From: Escherichia coli
GTDB lineage: Bacteria > Pseudomonadota > Gammaproteobacteria > Enterobacterales > Enterobacteriaceae
Reading direction: 5' to 3' (one strand)
DNA length: 64,000 nucleotides
Assembly (NCBI RefSeq): GCF_003334305.1
Contig: NZ_QOWS01000003.1
The position numbers and the translations under genes are program-made. Below are positions 1-64,000 of the stretch, one piece after another. How positions within the stretch are numbered: position 1 is the stretch's first letter; the number at the start of each line of letters is the position of its first letter. The notes beneath the pieces were generated by a model that searched no databases, was not told the origin of the DNA, and worked only from the letters and a program-made list of their open reading frames with translations.

Positions 1-698
1 ACGCCATCGGCATCCATTGGCGCAACGAACATCAGTGCGAAGTCCGGGTTTTCGCCCATTACTTGTGCCGAGCCGAAGCCAATCATGTTGTAGTGAGTCA
101 GCGCCGAGTTGGTGGCAACCACTTTCGCACCGCTAACGATAATCCCGGCGTCAGTCTCTTTTTCCAGCTTGATGTAAACGTCTTTCACTTTATCGGTCGG
201 CAAATGACGATCGATCGGTGGGTTAACAATCGCGTGGTTAAAGTAGAGGCCAGTTTCCTGAATACGGGTGTACCAGTTACGGGCGTTCTGCTCGAACTGA
301 CCGTAAAAGCCCGGATTCGCGCCCAGTGCGCAACCGAAAGCAGCTTTGTAGTCTGGGGTACGGCCCATCCAGCCATAGCTCAGGCGTGACCATTCAGCGA
401 TGGCGTCGCGTTGCTGGCGCAGGTCGTCGGCACTTTTCGCCACGCGGAAGAATTTATGGGTATAGCCGCCGCTGCCGGTGTCGGTGTTCCAACACAGAGA
501 GTCCTGCATCTCCGGTTTGTGCAGCGCGTCGTACAGTTGGGCAACAGACGCTGCCGCATTACGAAATGCCGGATGAGTGGTGACGTCTTTCACTCGCTCG
601 CCATAGATATAGATCTCGCGACCATCCTGCAGGCTTTTCAGATACTCTTCCCCGGTGAAAGGACGTTGGGTACTGGCGCGGAAATCTTCTGGTTTCAT
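1..698 (-). CDS. hpaB: 4-hydroxyphenylacetate 3-monooxygenase, oxygenase component (partial; N-terminal about 232 codons, gene continues beyond window start)
   Basis: Minus-strand translation from ATG at 698 gives MKPEDFRASTQRPFTGEEYLKSLQDGREIYIYGERVKD..., matching HpaB from memory; open to position 1; absent from ORF track because truncated by window edge. Confidence 0.85.
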   Translation of the reverse strand, partial: MKPEDFRASTQRPFTGEEYLKSLQDGREIYIYGERVKDVTTHPAFRNAAASVAQLYDALHKPEMQDSLCWNTDTGSGGYTHKFFRVAKSADDLRQQRDAIAEWSRLSYGWMGRTPDYKAAFGCALGANPGFYGQFEQNARNWYTRIQETGLYFNHAIVNPPIDRHLPTDKVKDVYIKLEKETDAGIIVSGAKVVATNSALTHYNMIGFGSAQVMGENPDFALMFVAPMDADG

Positions 699-948
699 GT
701 CGACCTCTACAGTATTAATCGGAATACGATTGTTAATTTTGTGTGTTGTTTTTGTTATTTAATTGAAGCTTGCAGGGGCGATTACGGGAAGACACTTTTG
801 GGACAATGGCTGGTACTTTTCAGGTCGGGTACGGTTTTGTGATCGAGGTCGCTTTTAGCGATTTTTAACGTTACTAAATCCCCTTGCTCCAGGCGGAGAA
901 AGGGGAATAGCAGGTGGTGCCTGGTTTCCCGTTAAGGCTAAGGGATTT

Positions 949-1839
949 TCACGTCACAGGTACTTTTTTGGCACGATAAGCACTGGGCGAGCAACCGACT
1001 AAGCGATTAAAAAAGCGCGCAAAATAAGCCGGATCTTTAAAACCGAGTTGCCAGGCAATATTGTTCACGGCGTTATCAGAAAACAGCAGCAGCCGCTTGG
1101 CTTCTCGTAGCTGCCTGTCGAAAATCAACCGTTTTGGCGGACGGTTGGCAAAGCGGCGGCAGATGTCCGTGAGTCGTGATTCGGTGATATGCAGTTCGTT
1201 AGCGTAATCCGGTACTGTCCAGTGCTGATGAAAATGGCTTTCAATCAGCATATTAAAACGCTGGAACAGTTTTAATTCTCCGCGCATCCCGCTGGCGGCA
1301 TGGTCGTCGAGTTTTGCATTACGCAGCAGTAGGGTGAACACTGCCTGTGCCAGTAGCGTCAGGGTGTGTTCCCGTCCAGGCAGTTGTTCCACCGATTCCC
1401 GCTCTATCAGTTGCCAATAGTGTTCCAGCGCCGCCAGTTCGTCGGGTTTATCTGCCAGTGACAGGCAAATCCCCGGCAGGCCGAAGGTTTCCCGAGTGCC
1501 TGGATAAAGAACTTCCAGCAGGGGCCAGATCAGATCTTCCCGTACCGTCAACACATGACCGTCGGCGTCAGACTCCGTAATAAACGCATGAGGTACTGAC
1601 GGTGGCGTCAGGACAAACAGGGGCGCTTCCACCGAGTAGCGATGATCGTCAAGCTGTAGCTCAATCTGTCCGCTATTGAGGAAATGCATCTGAAAGTACT
1701 GTTCGTGGCGATGTGGCAGCATATGGCGGCCAAAAAAGGCCGCCATGCGGGCGAACGACTGATAATGCACATCGTCCGTGCCCAGGCTTTCATCGTACTC
1801 TTTGCTGATATCAATATTGGCAATCTGACGGTCACACAT
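949..1839 (-). CDS. hpaA: AraC/XylS-family transcriptional activator of hpaBC
   Basis: 296-aa ORF; C-terminal AraC-type HTH (…ANELHITESRLTDICRRF…); position between hpaX and hpaB as in described hpa clusters. Confidence 0.85.
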   Translation of the reverse strand: MCDRQIANIDISKEYDESLGTDDVHYQSFARMAAFFGRHMLPHRHEQYFQMHFLNSGQIELQLDDHRYSVEAPLFVLTPPSVPHAFITESDADGHVLTVREDLIWPLLEVLYPGTRETFGLPGICLSLADKPDELAALEHYWQLIERESVEQLPGREHTLTLLAQAVFTLLLRNAKLDDHAASGMRGELKLFQRFNMLIESHFHQHWTVPDYANELHITESRLTDICRRFANRPPKRLIFDRQLREAKRLLLFSDNAVNNIAWQLGFKDPAYFARFFNRLVGCSPSAYRAKKVPVT

Positions 1840-1848
1840 CGTCGTTCC

Positions 1849-3225
1849 TTACGGGGTCGCTCGCGGACGGGAGGACTGCATTGGAATCGCCCAGATAATC
1901 CCCGCACCAATCACCAGCAGCGCGGCAACAAACCACAATCCACTGTTAAAGCTGCCGGTCAGATCTTTCAACCAGCCGATCATAAACGGACTTAACGCTG
2001 AACCAATGTTGCCAGTGGCGTTGATCACCGCAATACCGATCGCTCGTGCCCGCAGGCTGATGGACTGATCCGGTGTTGTCCAGAAAATCGCCATTGCGCT
2101 GAATGATCCGGTCGAAGCCATAATGATCCCCAGCATCTGGATCATGTTGTGATCAGTTGCCGAAGCCAGTAACCAACCTGCGGCAGCGAACAAATAAGGA
2201 AGGGCGGTGTGATGCCTTCGTTCCTGGCGGCGATCTGAGTGACGGCTCCAGTAGACCATCCCGAGAATGGTACAAATCTGCGGTACGGCGGCCAGCAGGC
2301 CGATGGTGATATTACTGCTGCCCTGATTAAAACTTTGCAGGATCTGCGGTGTCCAGATGCTGATCGCACTAAGTGTGTTGGTCAGGCAGAAATACGCCAG
2401 GGTATACATCATCACCACCGGAGTGAAGATCTCCCGCCACATACTGCGTTGTTGCATGGCGTGGTGGCTGATGGCTCCCTCTGGCTGAACCAGCGTCAGA
2501 CGATCGTTATCCATCATCTCTTGCAGGCATTTTTTGTCTTCTTTCGTCAGCCACTTAGCTTTGTCCGGTGAGTCATCAAGCCAGAACCACACCATGACGC
2601 CGAGTAATACCGACGGGAAGCCTTCCAGCAAAAACAGCCACTGCCAGCCTTTTAATGCCATTACGCCATCCAGCGACAAAATGTAGCCGGAAACGAGCGA
2701 TCCCAACGCTGTCGTTACCGGCATTGCAACCATAAACAAGGCGTTGGCACGGGCGCGGAAATAGGCCGGAAACCAGAAGGTTAAATACAGCAGAATGCCA
2801 GGCAGAAAGCCGGCTTCGGTAATGCCAACCAGTATACGCAGTACGTACAAGCTGGTGGGGCCAGTGGCAAACATGGTGGCAGTAGAGGCGATGCCCCAGA
2901 GCACCATGATGGTGGCGATCCAGCGCCGCGCACCGACAATACTCAGCATAATGTTGCTGGGAATGCCGAAGATGACATAAGCGGCATAGAACAGGGTGGT
3001 AGCGAGGCCAAACATGGTGGCGCTCAGACCGAGGTCGCGTCCCATCGTGAGTCCGGCAAAGCCGATGTTGATGCGATCAAGGAACGAGAAGATAAACAGC
3101 ACGAACAGAAAGACGATCAGGCGGCGAAATAGCTTCTTAATAACCGCCTGTTGTCCGGCAGTCAGCGCTTTATGCTGATTCGCCGGATCGATACTCTCCG
3201 GTATGGCAGGTGAGGTGTCGCTCAT
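1849..3225 (-). CDS. hpaX: 4-hydroxyphenylacetate permease, MFS transporter
   Basis: Multi-helix hydrophobic ORF; internal ATG at 3225 (MSDTSPAIPE…) gives about 458 aa with GAGGAAG ribosome-binding site upstream; ORF-track start is an upstream in-frame extension. Confidence 0.8.
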   Translation of the reverse strand: MSDTSPAIPESIDPANQHKALTAGQQAVIKKLFRRLIVFLFVLFIFSFLDRINIGFAGLTMGRDLGLSATMFGLATTLFYAAYVIFGIPSNIMLSIVGARRWIATIMVLWGIASTATMFATGPTSLYVLRILVGITEAGFLPGILLYLTFWFPAYFRARANALFMVAMPVTTALGSLVSGYILSLDGVMALKGWQWLFLLEGFPSVLLGVMVWFWLDDSPDKAKWLTKEDKKCLQEMMDNDRLTLVQPEGAISHHAMQQRSMWREIFTPVVMMYTLAYFCLTNTLSAISIWTPQILQSFNQGSSNITIGLLAAVPQICTILGMVYWSRHSDRRQERRHHTALPYLFAAAGWLLASATDHNMIQMLGIIMASTGSFSAMAIFWTTPDQSISLRARAIGIAVINATGNIGSALSPFMIGWLKDLTGSFNSGLWFVAALLVIGAGIIWAIPMQSSRPRATP

Positions 3226-3267: not shown

Positions 3268-3399
<132 letters not shown>

Positions 3400-3400
<1 letters not shown>

Positions 3401-4188
3401 TAATACACGCCGGGCTTCACGGCGGTGGCCTGCGCACCAAACCGTGCTGCCAGCGCTTCAGCGGCGCGGGCGAGCAGGGTGGTGTCAACGCCGACGGCGA
3501 CAAACAGCGCGCCCAGTTCCAGATAGCGTTTTGCCAGTTGCTCATTGGCGATCAGGATCCCCGGCGCTTTGCCCGCTTCGCGGATCTGCACGATCGCCTG
3601 CTCAATGGCGGCCTGTACTTCCGGGTGCTGCGGATTACCGGCATAACCCATATCGGCGCTCAGATCCGCCGGGCCGATAAACACGCCGTCGACCCCTTCC
3701 ACGTCCAGAATCTGCGGTAAGTTCTTCATTGCCTCACGCGTTTCGATCTGCACCAGCACGCACATTTGATCGTTGGCTTTTTGCAGGTAATCAGGAATGC
3801 GATTCCAGCGCGAGGCACGGGCCAGCGCACTGCCCACACCGCGAATACCGGCGGGGGGATAACGGGTGGCGCGTACCGCTTCACGGGCTTCGTCAGCGTT
3901 TTGAACCATCGGCACCAGTAAGGTTTGTGTGCCGACGTCCAGCAGTTGTTTGATTTGCACCGGATCGTTCCACGACGGACGTACTACCGGCTGGCTGGGG
4001 TAGGGCGCAATCGCCTGTAGCTGGGTGAGCACGGTTTGCACGTTATTCGGCGCGTGCTCACCGTCGATCAATAACCAGTCGAATCCTGCTCCGGCCAGTA
4101 ACTCTGCGCTGTAGCTGCTACTTAGCCCCAGCCATAATCCGATCTGCGGGCGGCCTGCTTTCAGCGCCGCTTTAAAACTGTTTTCCAT
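3400..4188 (-). CDS. hpaI: 2,4-dihydroxyhept-2-ene-1,7-dioate aldolase
   Basis: ATG at 4188 ([19 protein letters not shown]…) gives 262 aa; ORF-track start at 4329 is an upstream extension overlapping hpaH. Confidence 0.85.
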
Positions 4189-4198
4189 CGTTCTCTCC

Positions 4199-5002
4199 TT
4201 AAACAAAGCGGCAGCTAATGGAGCCCATGTTGCCGTAATCGACGTGGAAGGTGTCGCCCTTACGCGCCGGAACCGGGCGGGTGAACGAACCGCCGAGAAT
4301 GATTTGCCCGGCTTCCAGTTGTACGTCATACGGTGCGAGTTTGTTCGCCAGCCAGGCCACGCCGTTTGCCGGATGATTTAGCACGCCAGCGGCGACGCCG
4401 GTTTCTTCAATCACGCCATTGCGATACATCAGGGCGGAGATCCAACGCAGATCCAGTTCGTCTGGTTTGATCGGACGACCGCCGAGGATCACTCCGGCGT
4501 TGGCGGCGTTATCAGAAATGGTGTCGAACACTTTGCGCGGGCGCTGGGTTTCCGGATCGATGTTGTGGCAGCGAGCGTCGATCAGCTCCAGCGCCGGGAT
4601 CACGTAGTCCGTGGCGTTGTAGACGTCGAACAGCGTGCAGTTTGGCCCACGCAGCGGTTTTGCCAGCACGAAAGCCAGCTCCACTTCAATGCGCGGCACG
4701 ATAAAGCGATCGGTCGGGATATCGCTGCCATCGTGGAAGAACATGTCGTCCAGCAATGCACCGTAATCTGGTTCGCTGATTTGTGAGCTGGCCTGCATCG
4801 CTTTCGAGGTCAGACCGATTTTGTGGCCTTTCAGCGTACGGCCTTCGGCGATTTTCAGTCGAACCCATTCACGCTGCACCGCGTAAGCGTCTTCGATGGT
4901 GATCTCCGGGTAATCCAGGGAGATCGCGCGGATCTGTTCGCGCTGTTTTTCTGCCTGATCCAGACGCTGGGCGATCAGGGTGTGGGTGTGTTTATCGAAC
5001 AT
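4199..5002 (-). CDS. hpaH: 2-oxo-hept-3-ene-1,7-dioate hydratase
   Basis: 267 aa from [16 protein letters not shown]…; fumarylacetoacetate-hydrolase-like sequence; position in hpa operon. Confidence 0.85.
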
Positions 5003-5021
5003 AGCGATATCCTGTGGCATT

Positions 5022-5052
5022 GCCGGATGCGGCTGCGCCTTATCATCCGGCC
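5022..5052. repeat. REP-like palindromic unit inside the hpa operon
   Basis: GCCGGATGCGGCTGCGCCTTATCATCCGGCC between hpaF stop and hpaH start. Confidence 0.5.
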
Positions 5053-5069
5053 TGGAAGCTGGTGCAAAT

Positions 5070-5450
5070 TTATTTAAACAACGCGTGCACGTTGTTTTGT
5101 TTAAAATTCAGCGTCGGGTGCAGCTCTGCAATCTCAAATGAAAGCGCCAGGTAACGGCTCTCCATCAGTGAGGCGAAGTGCGTTTTAATCAGATCAAACA
5201 GCATTTCGCCCACTTCCTGACGGCTTTCCAGGCTGCGCCCGCTGCCGATTTTTAGCGTCATATGCACAAAGGCGTAATCGTGCTTGCCATCAGCCATTTG
5301 CCAGGTATCGATCCAGTGCGCCCGGCTACGTATTCCCCCAAGCGGAAAAATCCCCGTCGCCGCCAGTGCAGTGTTAACACTGGCAAACAGCTCAGGTAAG
5401 CGGGCTTCTTGACGAATATTTTCAGTACATTCCACGATAAAGTGCGGCAT
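5070..5450 (-). CDS. hpaF: 5-carboxymethyl-2-hydroxymuconate isomerase
   Basis: 126-aa [25 protein letters not shown]…. Confidence 0.85.
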
Positions 5451-5459
5451 GGTGGTTCC

Positions 5460-6311
5460 TTACGCGGGAAGCGGGAAAACAGCGTTAACCTGACCGGTGC
5501 CAGAGCTTGGGAATAGCTCGGTGATAAACTCCACCTTGCCGTCGTATTTATCCCAGCCGAGCATCCCCAGCAGCATCACCGTGTCGTGCATATTGCCTTC
5601 GCCGTAGCAGTAGTCGGCGTACTCCGGCAGCATATTGCAGAACTCTTTGAACTGGCCTTCGCGCCACAACTTCACCACGCGCTCGTCCATCTGGCGGTCG
5701 AACTCGCGGGTGTAGCTGTTCATCCCTTCTTCTGCACGCTGATCGTCAATAAAGCGGTGCGATAACGAACCGCTGGCAAGGACCGCCACGGTGCCGTCGT
5801 ACTGTTCGATCGCTTTCAGAATCGCTTCGCCCAGCTTGCGGCTGTCGGCAAAATCGTGAACCGTGCAGAAAGCCGAAATGGAGACCACTTTGAAGCGCTT
5901 GTCTTCATTCATGTAGCGCATCGGTACCAGCGTGCCGTATTCCAGTTTCAGGCTGGGAATGTTGTGCGCTTTTGCCCGCACGCCGAGCTTTAAGGCTTCA
6001 TCGGCAATTAGCTGCCCCAACTCCGGGTTGCCCTCGTAGTTGTAGGTCATGTCACGAATAAAATGCGGCAGCTCGTTGCTGGTGTAGACGCCTTCAAAAT
6101 GGTCTGCACAGTTGATGTGATAAGCACTGTTGACCAGCCAGTGGGTATCGAAAACGATAATGGTATCGACGCCCATTTCCCGGCAACGCTTGCTGATCTC
6201 TTTATGCCCGTCGATCGCACCCTGGCGGCAACCGTGGTTTTTCCCTGGCAGTTCAGAGAGATACATCGACGGTACGTGCGTGATCTTGGCGGCTAACGCT
6301 AACTTACCCAT
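5460..6311 (-). CDS. hpaD: 3,4-dihydroxyphenylacetate 2,3-dioxygenase (extradiol)
   Basis: 283-aa ORF; operon position. Confidence 0.85.
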   Translation of the reverse strand: MGKLALAAKITHVPSMYLSELPGKNHGCRQGAIDGHKEISKRCREMGVDTIIVFDTHWLVNSAYHINCADHFEGVYTSNELPHFIRDMTYNYEGNPELGQLIADEALKLGVRAKAHNIPSLKLEYGTLVPMRYMNEDKRFKVVSISAFCTVHDFADSRKLGEAILKAIEQYDGTVAVLASGSLSHRFIDDQRAEEGMNSYTREFDRQMDERVVKLWREGQFKEFCNMLPEYADYCYGEGNMHDTVMLLGMLGWDKYDGKVEFITELFPSSGTGQVNAVFPLPA

Positions 6312-6312
6312 A

Positions 6313-7779
6313 TCAGACTCCCCATTTCGGAATTGGATGGTCGCCCATGGAAATGCAGACGTTCTTCATTTCCGCGAACACTTCGAAGCTGTACTCACCG
6401 CCTTCACGTCCGGTGCCGGAGGCTTTTACGCCGCCAAACGGCTGGCGCAGGTCGCGGACGTTCTGGGTGTTGACGAACACCATGCCTGCTTCAATGCCAC
6501 GCGCCAGGCGTAACACTTTGCTGACATCCTGTGTCCAGATGTACGACGCGAGGCCGTACTCCACGTCGTTTGCCAGGCGTAAGCCTTCGGCTTCGTCTTT
6601 AAACGGCAGCAGGCAGGCGACCGGCCCGAAAATCTCTTCCTGGGCGACGCGCATACGGTTATCAACGTCTGCCAGCACCGTTGGGCGCAGGAAGTTGCCG
6701 CCTTTCAGGTGTGCAGGCAGGTCAGACGGTTTATCCGGGCCGCCCGCCAGCAGGGTTGCGCCTTCTTCAATGCCGAGACGGATATAGCCGGAGACTTTTT
6801 CCCAGTGTTGCTGGCTGATAAGCGCCCCAACCTGGGTATTTGGATCGTTCGGATCGCCCACGCGCAGACGGTTGGCGCGTTCGGCAAAGCGTTTAACGAA
6901 TTCCGGGTAGATGCTCTGCTGAATAAAGATGCGCGAACCGGCGGTGCAGCGTTCGCCGTTGATCGAGAAGATGGTGAACAGGGCGGCGTCCAGCGCGCGT
7001 TCAATATCAGCATCTTCAAAAATCAGCACCGGCGATTTACCGCCCAGTTCCATGGAGTATTTTTTCAGCCCGGCGTTTTTCATGATGTTGCGCCCGGTGG
7101 CGGTACCGCCGGTGAACGACACGGCACGCACGTCATGATGACGAACCAGCGCATCCCCTGCGGTTGCGCCGTAGCCCTGTACCACGTTCAGCACGCCTGC
7201 CGGAATACCGGCTTCCAGCGCCAGCTCACCCAGGCGGTCAGCGGTCAGCGGGGAGAGTTCCGACATCTTCAGCACCGCGGTATTGCCCAGCGCCAGACAC
7301 GGCGCGACCTTCCAGGTGGCGGTCATAAACGGCACGTTCCACGGCGATACCAGCGCACAAACGCCCACCGGCTGCACCAGCGTGTAGTTGAGCATCTTGT
7401 CGTCAACCGGATAGGTCTTGCCGTTCATCTGCTGGCAGACTTCCGCGAAAAATTCAAAGTTGTGAGAAGCGCGTGGGATCAACACATTTTTGGTCTGATG
7501 GATCGGCAGGCCCGTGTCCGCGGTTTCCATCGCGGCGATCTCCGGTACGTTCTGGTCGATCAGATCGCCCAGACGGCGCATCAGGCGCGCGCGCTCTTTC
7601 ATCGGCAGATTGGCCCATTTCGGGAACGCCTCTTTCGCTGCCGCTACCGCCTGATTGATCTCCGCTTCACCGCCGGAGGCCACATCCGCCAGCACTTCAC
7701 CCGTTGCCGGATTGGTAGTCTGGAAGTAGTCGTTACCTGCAACATTTTTACCGTTGATCCAATGATTTACTTTTTTCAT
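6313..7779 (-). CDS. hpaE: 5-carboxymethyl-2-hydroxymuconate semialdehyde dehydrogenase
   Basis: 488-aa ORF with aldehyde dehydrogenase hallmarks (…FTGGTATGRNIM…ELGGKSP…). Confidence 0.9.
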   Translation of the reverse strand: MKKVNHWINGKNVAGNDYFQTTNPATGEVLADVASGGEAEINQAVAAAKEAFPKWANLPMKERARLMRRLGDLIDQNVPEIAAMETADTGLPIHQTKNVLIPRASHNFEFFAEVCQQMNGKTYPVDDKMLNYTLVQPVGVCALVSPWNVPFMTATWKVAPCLALGNTAVLKMSELSPLTADRLGELALEAGIPAGVLNVVQGYGATAGDALVRHHDVRAVSFTGGTATGRNIMKNAGLKKYSMELGGKSPVLIFEDADIERALDAALFTIFSINGERCTAGSRIFIQQSIYPEFVKRFAERANRLRVGDPNDPNTQVGALISQQHWEKVSGYIRLGIEEGATLLAGGPDKPSDLPAHLKGGNFLRPTVLADVDNRMRVAQEEIFGPVACLLPFKDEAEGLRLANDVEYGLASYIWTQDVSKVLRLARGIEAGMVFVNTQNVRDLRQPFGGVKASGTGREGGEYSFEVFAEMKNVCISMGDHPIPKWGV

Positions 7780-9065
7780 TTCGCTGTTTCCTCACTCACA
7801 ATTCGGTTCACCAGGCGGCCCACGCCTTCTACTTCCACCACCACTTCATCGCCAGGCACCACGTCAGATAAGCCTTTTGGTGTGCCGGTGGCGATCATGT
7901 CGCCCGGATTCAGGGTCATAAATTCGCTTAAGTAGGCGATCAGGAAGGGCACGCTGAAGATCAGATCGGCGGTGGTGCCTTGCTGGCGTAACTCGCCGTT
8001 GACGAAGGTGCGAAGGGTCAGATTATGCGGGTCCGGGATCGCCTCTTTCGGCACGATGGTTGAAAGCATCGGCGTCAGTCCGTCGCGGCTTTTGACCCGC
8101 AGGTTAGGGCGGTAGTAGTTTTCCAGATAGTCGCGAATGGCGTAGTCGTTACACACGGTGTAGCCCGCGACATAATCCATGGCATCGGCTTCGCTGACGT
8201 TACGCGCCTGTTTGCCAATAACTACCACCAGCTCCGCTTCATAGTGCATGTATTCAATATTGTTTGGACGCACGGAGGTCTGGTTATCGCCAGTGAGGGT
8301 ATTTGGCGCTTTCAGGAACACCAGCGGTTCTTCCGGTGGCTTAAATTCCAGTTCGCTGGCGTGGTCGGCGTAGTTCAGGCCGAGGGCAAACAGCGTGCCG
8401 TGCGGGTGTGGCTGCGTTGGGAAGCTCTTGCGCGTGGTCACTTCACGTTCGTCCACTACCGGATTTTCCAGCGGCGGGAAACCTTCTGCGAGAACACGAA
8501 CGCGATCGCCTGGCTGTATTTCCACGCGCGCCTGTGGCGTGCCGAGCAGAATGGCATCGCCTGGATTCAGTGTGGCAAATTCGCTCAGGGCGCTCAGCAA
8601 CTGCGCGGCGTTACGTTGTAAATCGGCGGTATTCCAGTGATCGGCAGGACGCCCGTTGATCTCGGTATAGATGGTCAGATTATCGACATTGCTGAGAGCC
8701 ACGGTTTCGCCAATGGGGCAGAATCCATCACGACATTTTGCTTTGATTGCCGGGCGGTAAAAGCTCTCTTCCGGCAGGCTGACGTCGTTAGCCAGCGCAT
8801 ATCCGGCGATGTACTCTGCCGCATCTTCTTCACGTACTTTCGTCGCCGTTTTTCCCACAATCAGCGCAACAGTCGCACCGCTCAGTACCTTTTCACCCTG
8901 TGGAAAGGGAATCGGTTCACCGCAACCAATCACCGTATTGCGCGGTTTAATAAACCAGACCGCAGTTTTAGGCGGGGCTTTGTAGGGGGATTGCTGGAAC
9001 GCTTCCTGCCATGCATCAAGTTGGCTGCGATGGTTCAACGCTACGGCGAAGATAGTGCCTTTCAT
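7776..9065 (-). CDS. hpaG: bifunctional isomerase/decarboxylase of the homoprotocatechuate pathway
   Basis: 429 aa from MKGTIFAVALNH…; duplicated FAH-like halves; 4-nt overlap with hpaE. Confidence 0.85.
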   Translation of the reverse strand: MKGTIFAVALNHRSQLDAWQEAFQQSPYKAPPKTAVWFIKPRNTVIGCGEPIPFPQGEKVLSGATVALIVGKTATKVREEDAAEYIAGYALANDVSLPEESFYRPAIKAKCRDGFCPIGETVALSNVDNLTIYTEINGRPADHWNTADLQRNAAQLLSALSEFATLNPGDAILLGTPQARVEIQPGDRVRVLAEGFPPLENPVVDEREVTTRKSFPTQPHPHGTLFALGLNYADHASELEFKPPEEPLVFLKAPNTLTGDNQTSVRPNNIEYMHYEAELVVVIGKQARNVSEADAMDYVAGYTVCNDYAIRDYLENYYRPNLRVKSRDGLTPMLSTIVPKEAIPDPHNLTLRTFVNGELRQQGTTADLIFSVPFLIAYLSEFMTLNPGDMIATGTPKGLSDVVPGDEVVVEVEGVGRLVNRIVSEETAK

Positions 9066-11577: not shown

Positions 11578-11607
11578 ATGCCCGATAAGCAAAATGTTAT
11601 CGGGCAT
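11578..11607. terminator. Hairpin between convergent tsr and lgoT
   Basis: ATGCCCGATAA…TTATCGGGCAT inverted repeat between the two stop codons. Confidence 0.55.
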
Positions 11608-15347: not shown

Positions 15348-15393
15348 TGTAGGCCGGAGAAGGTGTGTAGGTCGCACCTTATGCGACCTACAC
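15348..15393. repeat. REP-like palindromic element
   Basis: TGTAGGCCGGAGAAGGTGTGTAGGTCGCACCTTATGCGACCTACAC between lgoD and opgB. Confidence 0.6.
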
Positions 15394-15405
15394 ATCAGTC
15401 AGGAA

Positions 15406-24297: not shown

Positions 24298-24335
24298 AAA
24301 ATCAAGGAAGAAACAAGAAAGGAAGTAAAGATAAT

Positions 24336-24422
24336 TGGTGCGAGGGGGGGGACTTGAACCCCCACGTCCGTAAGGACACTAACACCTGAAGCTAGCGCGT
24401 CTACCAATTCCGCCACCTTCGC
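24336..24422 (-). tRNA. leuV: tRNA-Leu (anticodon CAG)
   Basis: Reverse complement reads GCGAAGGTGGCGGAATTGGTAGACGCGCTAGCTTCAGGTGTTAGTGTCCTTACGGACGTGGGGGTTCAAGTCCCCCCCCTCGCACCA, 87 nt with long variable arm and encoded CCA. Confidence 0.92.
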
Positions 24423-24463
24423 ATACCATCAATTCTTAAAAAGAATTGCTACCACGGAGGCGC

Positions 24464-24491
24464 ATTCTAGTGGTTTTCAGCTTTTCGTCAA
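24464..24491 (-). promoter_or_regulatory. Sigma-70 promoter for tRNA-Leu
   Basis: On minus strand TTGACG-N16-TAGAAT followed by GC-rich discriminator GCGCCTCC, with A/T-rich UP-like sequence upstream; typical stringently controlled stable-RNA promoter. Confidence 0.6.
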
Positions 24492-24547
24492 TAGTTAATT
24501 ATCGCCGGAGGTGTAATTGCTGGAAAAATGTCCATCAGGAAACTAGC

Positions 24548-24710
<163 letters not shown>

Positions 24711-32321: not shown

Positions 32322-32430
32322 CCCTTCGTAGGCAGCATCCGGCAGTCGGCGCATAATGCCTGATGCGACGCTTGTCGCGTCTTATCATGCCTACAGGTTT
32401 GTGCCGAACCGTAGGCCGTATCCGGCATGT
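32322..32430. repeat. BIME: REP units
   Basis: GCCTGATGCGACGCTTGTCGCGTCTTATCATGCCTAC flanked by two CGTAGGC…ATCCGGCA units between yjjV and yjjW. Confidence 0.75.
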
Positions 32431-45419: not shown

Positions 45420-45578
45420 TGTTGTAGGCCGGAAAAGGCGTTCACGCCGTATCCGGCATTCGGTGCTCAATGCCTGATGCGACGCTTACCGCGTCTTATC
45501 AGGCCTGGAGATTCACAACGTATTGAAATTTCTTGGTTTGTAGGCCGGATAAGGCGTTCACGCCGCATCCGGCATTTT
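45420..45578. repeat. BIME: three REP units
   Basis: TGTAGGCCGGAAAAGGCGTTCACGCCGTATCCGGCA, GCCTGATGCGACGCTTACCGCGTCTTATCAGGCC, GTAGGCCGGATAAGGCGTTCACGCCGCATCCGGCA between nadR and ettA. Confidence 0.8.

Positions 45579-49817: not shown

Positions 49818-50433
<616 letters not shown>

Positions 50434-63890: not shown

Positions 63891-64000
<110 letters not shown>

Follow-up and report, generated by a model that had tools for sequence, protein, structure and literature searches.

A palindromic sequence in the short spacer between hpaF and hpaH of Escherichia coli raises the question of what kind of element it is, and of whether it affects the expression of the operon in which it is embedded. We addressed this question in a 64-kb stretch of E. 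coli DNA (hereafter the window, with positions counted from its first nucleotide), and took gene coordinates from the RefSeq annotation of strain 2013C-3181 (NZ_CP027312.1), whose genome is 100% identical to the window over positions 4600-5500.

The hpaF-hpaH spacer and its operon

According to this annotation, the hpaF-hpaH intergenic spacer occupies 67 bp of the minus strand (5003-5069) within the hpaGEDFHI operon. Upstream of it, on the same strand, lie hpaG (7776-9065), hpaE (6313-7779), hpaD (5460-6311) and hpaF (5070-5450, stop codon at 5070-5072), which encodes 5-carboxymethyl-2-hydroxymuconate isomerase and is present in the window as the allele that we call A. Downstream, again on the minus strand, are hpaH (4199-5002, ATG at 5000-5002), which encodes 2-oxo-hept-4-ene-1,7-dioate hydratase, and hpaI (3400-4188, stop codon at 3400-3402), beyond which the cluster continues in NZ_CP027312.1 with hpaX, hpaA and hpaBC. 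An earlier note on this DNA had placed a REP-like unit in a 67-bp hpaH-hpaF spacer, and the interval 5003-5069 is indeed exactly the spacer, with one Y-type REP inside it. The note had also put this unit inside a polycistronic operon, a placement that is correct for the hpaGEDFHI meta-cleavage operon.

The genes hpaGEDFHI have been described as a single, HpaR-repressed meta operon (PMC7180172). When we scanned the operon strand between 3000 and 9400, the sole promoter-like site was located upstream of hpaG (9223-9194), which fits the single HpaR-repressed hpaGEDFHI operon of the literature, and in the hpaF-hpaH spacer and its surroundings the scan yielded neither terminator-like nor promoter-like sites on the minus strand. 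A Shine-Dalgarno sequence for hpaH, AGGA (5010-5013, minus strand), lies 7 nt upstream of the hpaH ATG and 8 nt downstream of the hairpin described below. It is unpaired in the predicted fold and is not sequestered by the REP hairpin, and the sequence ACAGGA before the hpaH ATG is retained in most hpaF-hpaH spacers of the Enterobacteriaceae.

The spacer contains a single, slightly decayed REP unit

Read on the operon strand, the spacer has the sequence TAA-ATTTGCACCAGCTTCCAG-GCCGGATGATAAGGCGCAGCCGCATCCGGC-AATGCCACAGGATATCGCT-ATG. A single Y-type REP unit was located in it by nhmmer, by a match to the Y consensus and by a pattern scan (minus strand, 5018-5055, or 5021-5055 in the census of the window), with the operon-strand sequence CCAG-GCCGGATGATAAGGCGCAGCCGCATCCGGC-AATG. 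This unit is extragenic, as it lies wholly inside the 67-bp gap between the annotated hpaF and hpaH genes, and its two arms, GCCGGATG (5022-5029) and CATCCGGC (5044-5051), are inverted repeats of each other over 8 bp with no mismatch. The predicted hairpin (5022-5051, minus strand; -16.9 kcal/mol) consists of an 8-bp lower stem, an internal loop, a 3-bp upper stem and a 3-nt loop. When folded as an isolated 43-nt sequence, it had a z score of -1.84, with 6 of 200 shuffled sequences being equally stable, and in a 96-nt context the fold was not unusually stable (z = +0.41).

The unit shares with the Y-type REPs of E. coli (consensus TGCCGGATGCGGCGTGAACGCCTTATCCGGCCTAC in the Bachellier nomenclature; PMC3333891) an extragenic location, an imperfect GCCGGATG...CATCCGGC palindrome with an internal mismatch loop, and membership of a multi-copy family. 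Its left arm matched the Y consensus at 13 of 13 nt by BLAST. Relative to that consensus, however, it has CCAG instead of GTAG, a 3-nt insertion, a shorter upper stem (GGC/GCC) and a GCA loop. A nhmmer profile made from all 15 REP units in the window, including the focal one, scored it at 20.3 bits (E = 3.1e-5), which places it among the weakest, as the other 14 units scored 24-40 bits with the same profile; the best non-REP matches to the profile had E values of about 0.2-0.3. We regard it as virtually certain that the element in the spacer is a REP by identity.

The most conspicuous departure from the family is the CCAG at 5052-5055 (minus strand), which stands in place of the conserved GTAG and reads CTGG rather than CTAC on the plus strand. 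At this position CTAC was found in 12 of the 15 units of the window, CTGG in the focal unit and in the one at 45471-45508, and CTTG in the one at 63891-63927, and the 3-nt insertion (GAT/ATC) was absent from all 14 other units. Since the two other units that lack GTAG nevertheless score well, the focal unit is a degenerate member of the family rather than a non-member. Binding by TnpA_REP requires both GTAG and the stem mismatch (PMC3333891), and with CCAG in this position the focal REP has therefore probably ceased to be a substrate of TnpA_REP. The focal element is thus an ordinary, slightly decayed REP, of a kind that is already known.

No Rfam family reached its gathering threshold at the focal site; the REP325-derived family naRNA4 (RF02564) matched positions 4993-5052 with 16.6 bits (E = 1), as against a gathering score of 59.5. 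We rejected the status of a BIME for the window element, since it comprises only one REP unit and lacks an inverted pair with a linker. A second palindrome, AAACAACG/CGTTGTTT, located at 5076-5097 in the 3' end of hpaF, was also considered and was rejected as a conserved RNA structure, as it is a product of the conserved peptide NNVHALF, and synonymous changes freely break its pairing in other genera. REPs have reportedly been noted before in the hpa cluster of E. coli W. Our full-text search of the literature, the original hpa/hpc papers (Prieto 1996, Diaz 2001) excepted, found no mention of the hpaF-hpaH REP.

Because it is a GC-rich hairpin between two genes, the palindrome might be thought to act as an intrinsic terminator that ends the hpaGEDF transcript, or to conceal a promoter from which hpaHI is transcribed. 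However, the sequence after the hairpin is AAUGCCACAGGAUAUCGCU, in which there is no U-tract, and the hairpin is for this reason not an intrinsic terminator; neither a terminator nor a promoter was found there on the minus strand in our scan, and hpaGEDFHI is described as a single operon. We consider either function to be extremely improbable.

Two forms of the spacer occur in E. coli

The hpaF-hpaH junction was present in 2,072 of 5,426 complete E. coli genomes. With a 73-nt probe that recognizes only the spacer of the window, 1,083 of these 2,072 genomes were found to have the single-REP form, and with a probe for an alternative spacer, the other 989 were found to have a two-REP BIME, so that the two forms (1,083 + 989) account for every one of the hpa-positive genomes. 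The alternative spacer, which is found in strains 673 and HS among others, is 110 bp in length and is a true BIME, with the sequence TAG-CGCGCAGATT-GCCCGGTGGCGCTGCGCTTACCGGGC-CTAC-AAAACCCCAAACCGTACACC-GTAG-GCCGGATAAGGCGCAGCCGCATCCGGC-AATGCC.... Its right-hand REP and all of the sequence 3' of this REP (GATAAGGCGCAGCCGCATCCGGCAATGCCACAGGATATCGCT-ATG) are identical to those of the single-REP form, whereas the window spacer lacks the left unit (GCCCGGTGGCGCTGCGCTTACCGGGCCTAC), the linker and the GTAG, and has in their stead 18 unrelated nucleotides (ATTTGCACCAGCTTCCAG).

These comparisons point to the window REP as what survives, namely the right-hand unit, of a BIME with two REPs, the form found at this junction in the other hpa-positive E. 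coli and in related genera; this origin is part of the overall explanation that we favor, and that we think on balance to be right. Absence of the palindrome from closely related hpa clusters, which the earlier note had named among what would count against its own reading, is not what we observed, as the right-hand REP was found in all 2,072 genomes (2,072/2,072) and also in Pseudocitrobacter, Citrobacter and Klebsiella.

The two spacer forms differ in the distance between the hpaF stop codon and the first hairpin, which bears on a possible effect of the REP on translation. According to Liang 2015, as cited in PMC12306157, a REP located less than 16 nt after a stop codon reduces translation of the upstream gene, and in this manner a REP hairpin near the hpaF stop codon might stall the terminating ribosome and lower the output of HpaF. 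This would agree with the BIME form, in which the first hairpin begins 10 nt past the hpaF stop codon, and with the REP after hpaI in the window, which begins 1 nt past the hpaI stop codon. In the window form of the hpaF-hpaH spacer, however, the first base to be paired (5051) comes 18 nt after the hpaF stop codon (5070-5072), a distance outside this damping range of less than 16 nt, and within 15 nt of the stop codon there is just the unpaired CCAG. We therefore consider it very unlikely that the window REP acts as a translational damper of hpaF.

The REP state of the spacer is linked to two hpaF alleles

When the window was aligned with strain 673 and identity was followed along the hpa cluster, it was 97-100% except at 4950-5506, where it dropped to 72-85%. 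The divergent segment, of roughly 0.33 kb, begins in the 9-nt gap between hpaD and hpaF and stops some 45 nt short of the stop codon of hpaF; we refer to the hpaF of the window as allele A and to that of strain 673 as allele B. The two alleles have a nucleotide identity of 81.7%, with a dS of 0.87 and a dN/dS of 0.107, and their HpaF proteins are 84% identical (16% of residues differ). The corresponding values between the window and strain 673 were 98.1% identity, dS 0.09 and dN/dS 0.017 for hpaD, and 97.1% identity, dS 0.13 and dN/dS 0.000 for hpaH. The dS between the hpaF alleles is that of a divergence between genera, and their dN/dS matches the values obtained for hpaF between genera (0.08-0.10), so that both are apparently functional and subject to purifying selection.

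The nearest grouping of allele B is with Pseudocitrobacter, at a nucleotide identity of about 93%, and the flanking genes group in the same way. For allele A, all sequences sampled from the GTDB species representatives were only about 80% identical, and no donor was found among these; the best protein match to allele A HpaF outside E. coli was 88%. BL21 carries allele A, and the structure of the isomerase CHMI in PDB entry 1OTG, which we take to derive from HpcD of E. coli C, is that of allele B. As a separate observation, HpaH and HpaD of Pseudocitrobacter have 99-99.6% protein identity to those of E. coli, compared with about 91-97% in the other Enterobacteriaceae genera sampled, and this near-identity suggests that the hpa clusters of E. 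coli and Pseudocitrobacter have a recent common origin or have been exchanged.

When spacer form and hpaF allele were considered together, allele A occurred with the single REP in 1,081-1,083 genomes and allele B with the BIME in 985, and four genomes had the recombinant combination of allele A with the BIME. The linkage between REP state and hpaF allele is thus nearly complete. What is mildly new here is confined to the even split of E. coli between one and two REPs and to its close association with two hpaF alleles that differ as much as those of separate genera. Such linkage might be read as evidence that REP state and hpaF allele are one co-inherited cassette, in an approximately 52:48 dimorphism, in which the REP indel serves as a natural expression switch that compensates for functional differences between the HpaF alleles. 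If this were true, the BIME hairpin, 10 nt past the hpaF stop codon, would damp translation, and the single REP, at 18 nt, would be outside the damping range. We think it quite unlikely that the locus works in this way.

The same linkage can be taken to suggest that REP and BIME elements at this site act mainly on DNA, as a hot spot of recombination, rearrangement and insertion that shapes the evolution of the hpa cluster, as REP state is almost perfectly linked to the divergent hpaF segment of roughly 0.33 kb. Two individual genomes would agree with such a role. In strain 47-1826, the hpa cluster breaks off where the left REP has its 3' edge (GGGCCT), which a large deletion has fused to GGCCTA in hypT, and the junction is one base away from the CC|TAC site, the sequence that TnpA_REP cuts in vitro. 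In the O157:H16 strain 98-3133, an IS30 is located about 15 nt before the hpaF stop codon. However, the deletion and the insertion were each seen in one genome of about 2,072, and about 45 nt that the two alleles share lie between the divergent part of hpaF and the spacer, so that the REP is not demonstrably the crossover point. The 47-1826 junction moreover lacks one base that a clean CC|TA join would have, and on this ground we rejected clean cleavage by TnpA_REP as the origin of the deletion. A role at the level of DNA would in any case be compatible with one in RNA. We regard a mainly DNA-level role as unlikely, and the two genomes as anecdotes that are consistent with the known role of REPs as target sites for rearrangements and insertion sequences. 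With respect to gene content, all of the DNA from hypT to the left REP, hpaH included, is missing from 47-1826, and the IS30 of 98-3133 adjoins the REP, truncates hpaF and splits the operon.

The hpaF-hpaH junction in other genera

We compared the junction across genera in a set of 80 loci found with HpaF, using those spacers in which hpaH directly follows hpaF. Spacer length ranged from 8 to 970 nt. Pluralibacter, Yokenella and Enterobacteriaceae LSJC7 had empty spacers of 8-11 nt. The same BIME architecture as in E. coli, at times with extra tandem right-hand units, was present in Citrobacter, Klebsiella, Pseudocitrobacter and Pseudenterobacter. A different long palindromic repeat (CCCTCTCCC...GGGAGAGGG...; GTCCCCTCTCCC...GGGAGAGGGTTAGGGTGAGGGG...) occupied the spacer in Leclercia, Kluyvera and several Enterobacter, often in tandem and in up to about four copies; a comparison of the Leclercia repeat with Rfam gave no match above threshold, with only generic, sub-threshold matches to miRNA hairpins. 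Two spacers stood out in other respects. That of Citrobacter sp. NCU1, at 970 nt, was far longer than in any other genus sampled, and in that of Enterobacter genomosp. O each of the first two copies of the repeat was followed by a further occurrence of the ~25 nt with which hpaF ends (GGACAACGTGCA(C/T)GCGTTGTTTAAGTAA).

The occurrence of empty spacers, BIMEs or other repeats at one and the same junction argues that the element is dispensable and that no specific function of it is conserved. The hpaF-hpaH junction is, to judge from these comparisons, a permissive and repeatedly colonized site, at which the operon requires no particular element.

This hypervariability of the spacer, with lengths of 8-970 nt across genera and no element at all in several of them, is also in accord with the view that the REP is a neutral or selfish passenger, a relic of REP/BIME proliferation in a permissive site that has no measurable effect on hpa expression and is kept by linkage and by lack of counter-selection. 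The 1,083 to 989 split of E. coli between one and two units agrees with this view, as do the loss from the focal unit of the GTAG needed for TnpA_REP binding and the published effects of REPs, which are strongly context dependent and often absent. Against it, palindromic repeats of different families repeatedly occupy this same junction in many genera, REPs between tandem genes go on average with upstream-biased expression, and an mRNA hairpin of -16.9 kcal/mol is likely to affect 3' exonucleases somewhat. We consider a purely neutral passenger to be a serious possibility, if on the whole an improbable one.

REP and BIME density in the window

A census of the REPs of the window was taken in two ways that were in agreement, with the consensus sequences of Y, Z1 and Z2 as BLAST queries and with the nhmmer profile. 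The window contains eight canonical REP/BIME loci, with a total of 15 full units and one partial unit, and in addition one degenerate remnant. The BIME of the hpaI-hpaX spacer (3273-3399) has two full units and one partial, degenerate unit, and is followed by the focal single unit between hpaF and hpaH (5021-5055). BIMEs of three units each were found between rsmC and tRNA-Leu (24559-24701) and between the convergent genes ettA and nadR (45424-45574), and BIMEs of two units each between the adjacent same-strand genes deoC and deoA (35867-35942), which we take to be part of the deoCABD operon, and between the convergent genes yjjX and trpR (49820-49903). Single Z2 REPs were located between the convergent genes yjjW and yjjV (32357-32394) and downstream of thrC (63892-63925). 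The degenerate remnant, GTAGGCCGGAGAAGG... then GTAGGTCGCA...TGCGACCTAC, lies between opgB and lgoD (15349-15395); a palindrome after tsr (11580-11605) was examined and is not a REP.

Several of these loci have features of their own. The hpaI-hpaX spacer varies by strain, being 174 bp in the window and in strain 673 and 123 bp in BL21, and the stem of the REP unit next to hpaI begins 1 nt after the hpaI stop codon (3366-3402), well inside the damping range of less than 16 nt (PMC12306157). The gathering score of naRNA4 (RF02564) was passed by the three BIMEs at rsmC/tRNA-Leu (24562-24644), ettA/nadR (45427-45505) and yjjX/trpR (49823-49900), with 70-77 bits; this family in effect models a Z2-Y pair of REPs. 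Beside the first of these three, the window has one tRNA-Leu gene within 24335-24645, as against three in strain 2013C-3181, and an IS621 (of the IS110 family) that lies next to the REP cluster in 2013C-3181 is absent from the window. The window thus belongs to another strain, its complete identity to 2013C-3181 at hpa notwithstanding. IS621 is known to target REPs.

The earlier note had counted at least nine REP/BIME clusters in the window and had called their density high. Eight canonical loci were confirmed by BLAST and nhmmer, and a ninth is reached only by a generous count that includes the remnant at 15349-15395. From the approximately 600 REP units at 355 annotated loci of K-12, a mean of 4.9 loci and 8.3 units is predicted per 64 kb, so that the window has about 1.6 times the mean number of loci, and the Poisson probability of eight or more loci is 0.12. 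However, six 50-kb control segments taken around NZ_CP027312.1 and searched with the same profile had 0, 0, 0, 1, 3 and 7 loci (19 units in 300 kb in total), and since loci are so strongly clumped, at 0-7 per 50 kb, the Poisson test of REP density misleads. A 2026 preprint describes an excess of REPs close to the origin and a deficit close to the terminus, which fits the density of a window that spans hpa to thr. The window is thus at the dense end, as had been claimed, but the claim was overstated, as one of the six controls was equally dense; the REP density is real, and is not remarkable. The further statement that REPs generate spurious open reading frames held up well, as frames of at least 40 codons for amino acids cross eight of the nine loci, an example being an 84-aa frame on the plus strand at 4823-5077. 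RefSeq coding sequences were absent from both of the spacers that we inspected, the focal one and that of hpaI-hpaX.

A proposed role for the REP in hpaGEDFHI mRNA

The reading that we favor is that the focal element is an ordinary Y-type REP that would be co-transcribed as a hairpin, which would modestly protect the upstream mRNA and attenuate read-through, and which the pathway does not need. Transcription from the HpaR-controlled promoter upstream of hpaG would put the REP into the hpaGEDFHI mRNA, where, past the stop codon of hpaF and ahead of the ribosome-binding site of hpaH, it is predicted to form a GC-rich hairpin (-16.9 kcal/mol). This hairpin would impede 3'-to-5' exonucleases, so that the upstream hpaGEDF segment would persist longer, and a partial, factor-dependent attenuation of read-through into hpaHI may add to this effect. 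Protection and attenuation would together result in upstream-biased expression, to an extent that we expect to be small and local.

This model draws on what is known of REPs elsewhere. In K-12, 146 of 355 REP loci lie between tandem genes, and tandem pairs with a REP have upstream-biased expression, with a median log2 ratio of 0.96 versus -0.09 in controls (bioRxiv 10.64898/2026.03.23.713779). The REP325 element has been reported to be both a stabilizer and a partly Rho-dependent attenuator (bioRxiv 10.64898/2026.03.23.713779), a dual action that we adopted as our model. Like the hpa element, REP325 lies between tandem genes, which in its case are those of the co-transcribed yjdM-yjdN operon and in that of hpa are predicted to be co-transcribed; in contrast to the hpa element, REP325 has 12 palindromic units and measured effects, whereas the hpa element has one unit and an effect that would follow by analogy. 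The BIME between deoC and deoA resembles the hpa REP in its location between adjacent same-strand genes of a catabolic cluster, but it consists of a pair of canonical units in which GTAG is retained, and on the transcribed strand its fold is far more stable (-45.7 kcal/mol, z = -6.3). The classic example of a REP that stabilizes mRNA is reportedly that of malE-malF, for which direct half-life evidence is said to have been obtained by Newbury and colleagues in 1987. This system is like hpa in that the REP lies within an operon and follows an upstream gene whose expression is higher, and differs from hpa in having two REPs rather than one.

Other evidence argues against the proposed role. The focal unit is among the weakest of the window (20.3 bits), with a single hairpin and a z score of -1.84. 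The effects of REPs spread widely, and various REPs placed after a reporter gave no stabilization (bioRxiv 10.64898/2026.03.23.713779). Having been selected by elimination and by analogy, a stabilizing and attenuating role would seem to be the most likely one, and we hold the statement as a whole, that of an ordinary, modestly protective and attenuating REP which is not needed by the pathway, to be somewhat more probable than its negation. Taken by itself, the claim that the REP has a measurable regulatory effect at the hpa locus falls a little short of being probable on the strength of these analogies.

Implications for the hpa operon of E. coli

The element matters little in itself, as REPs between the tandem genes of an operon are a textbook feature of E. 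coli, and the hpa copy is without unusual property. The kind of REP is already known, and the role that the earlier note had suggested for it, as an mRNA stabilizer or polarity modulator, is a standard, documented one for REPs between tandem genes that, by analogy, is plausible here. Given the variation of the junction, the REP is dispensable for the hpa pathway. For annotation, open reading frames that cross these palindromes are to be ignored. For the engineering and comparison of hpa clusters, such as those of BL21, W and C, strains differ at this junction both in the number of REPs and in the hpaF allele. The natural pair of one-REP and two-REP spacers is a ready test case for the effect of REP copy number, and of distance from the stop codon, on the output of an operon.
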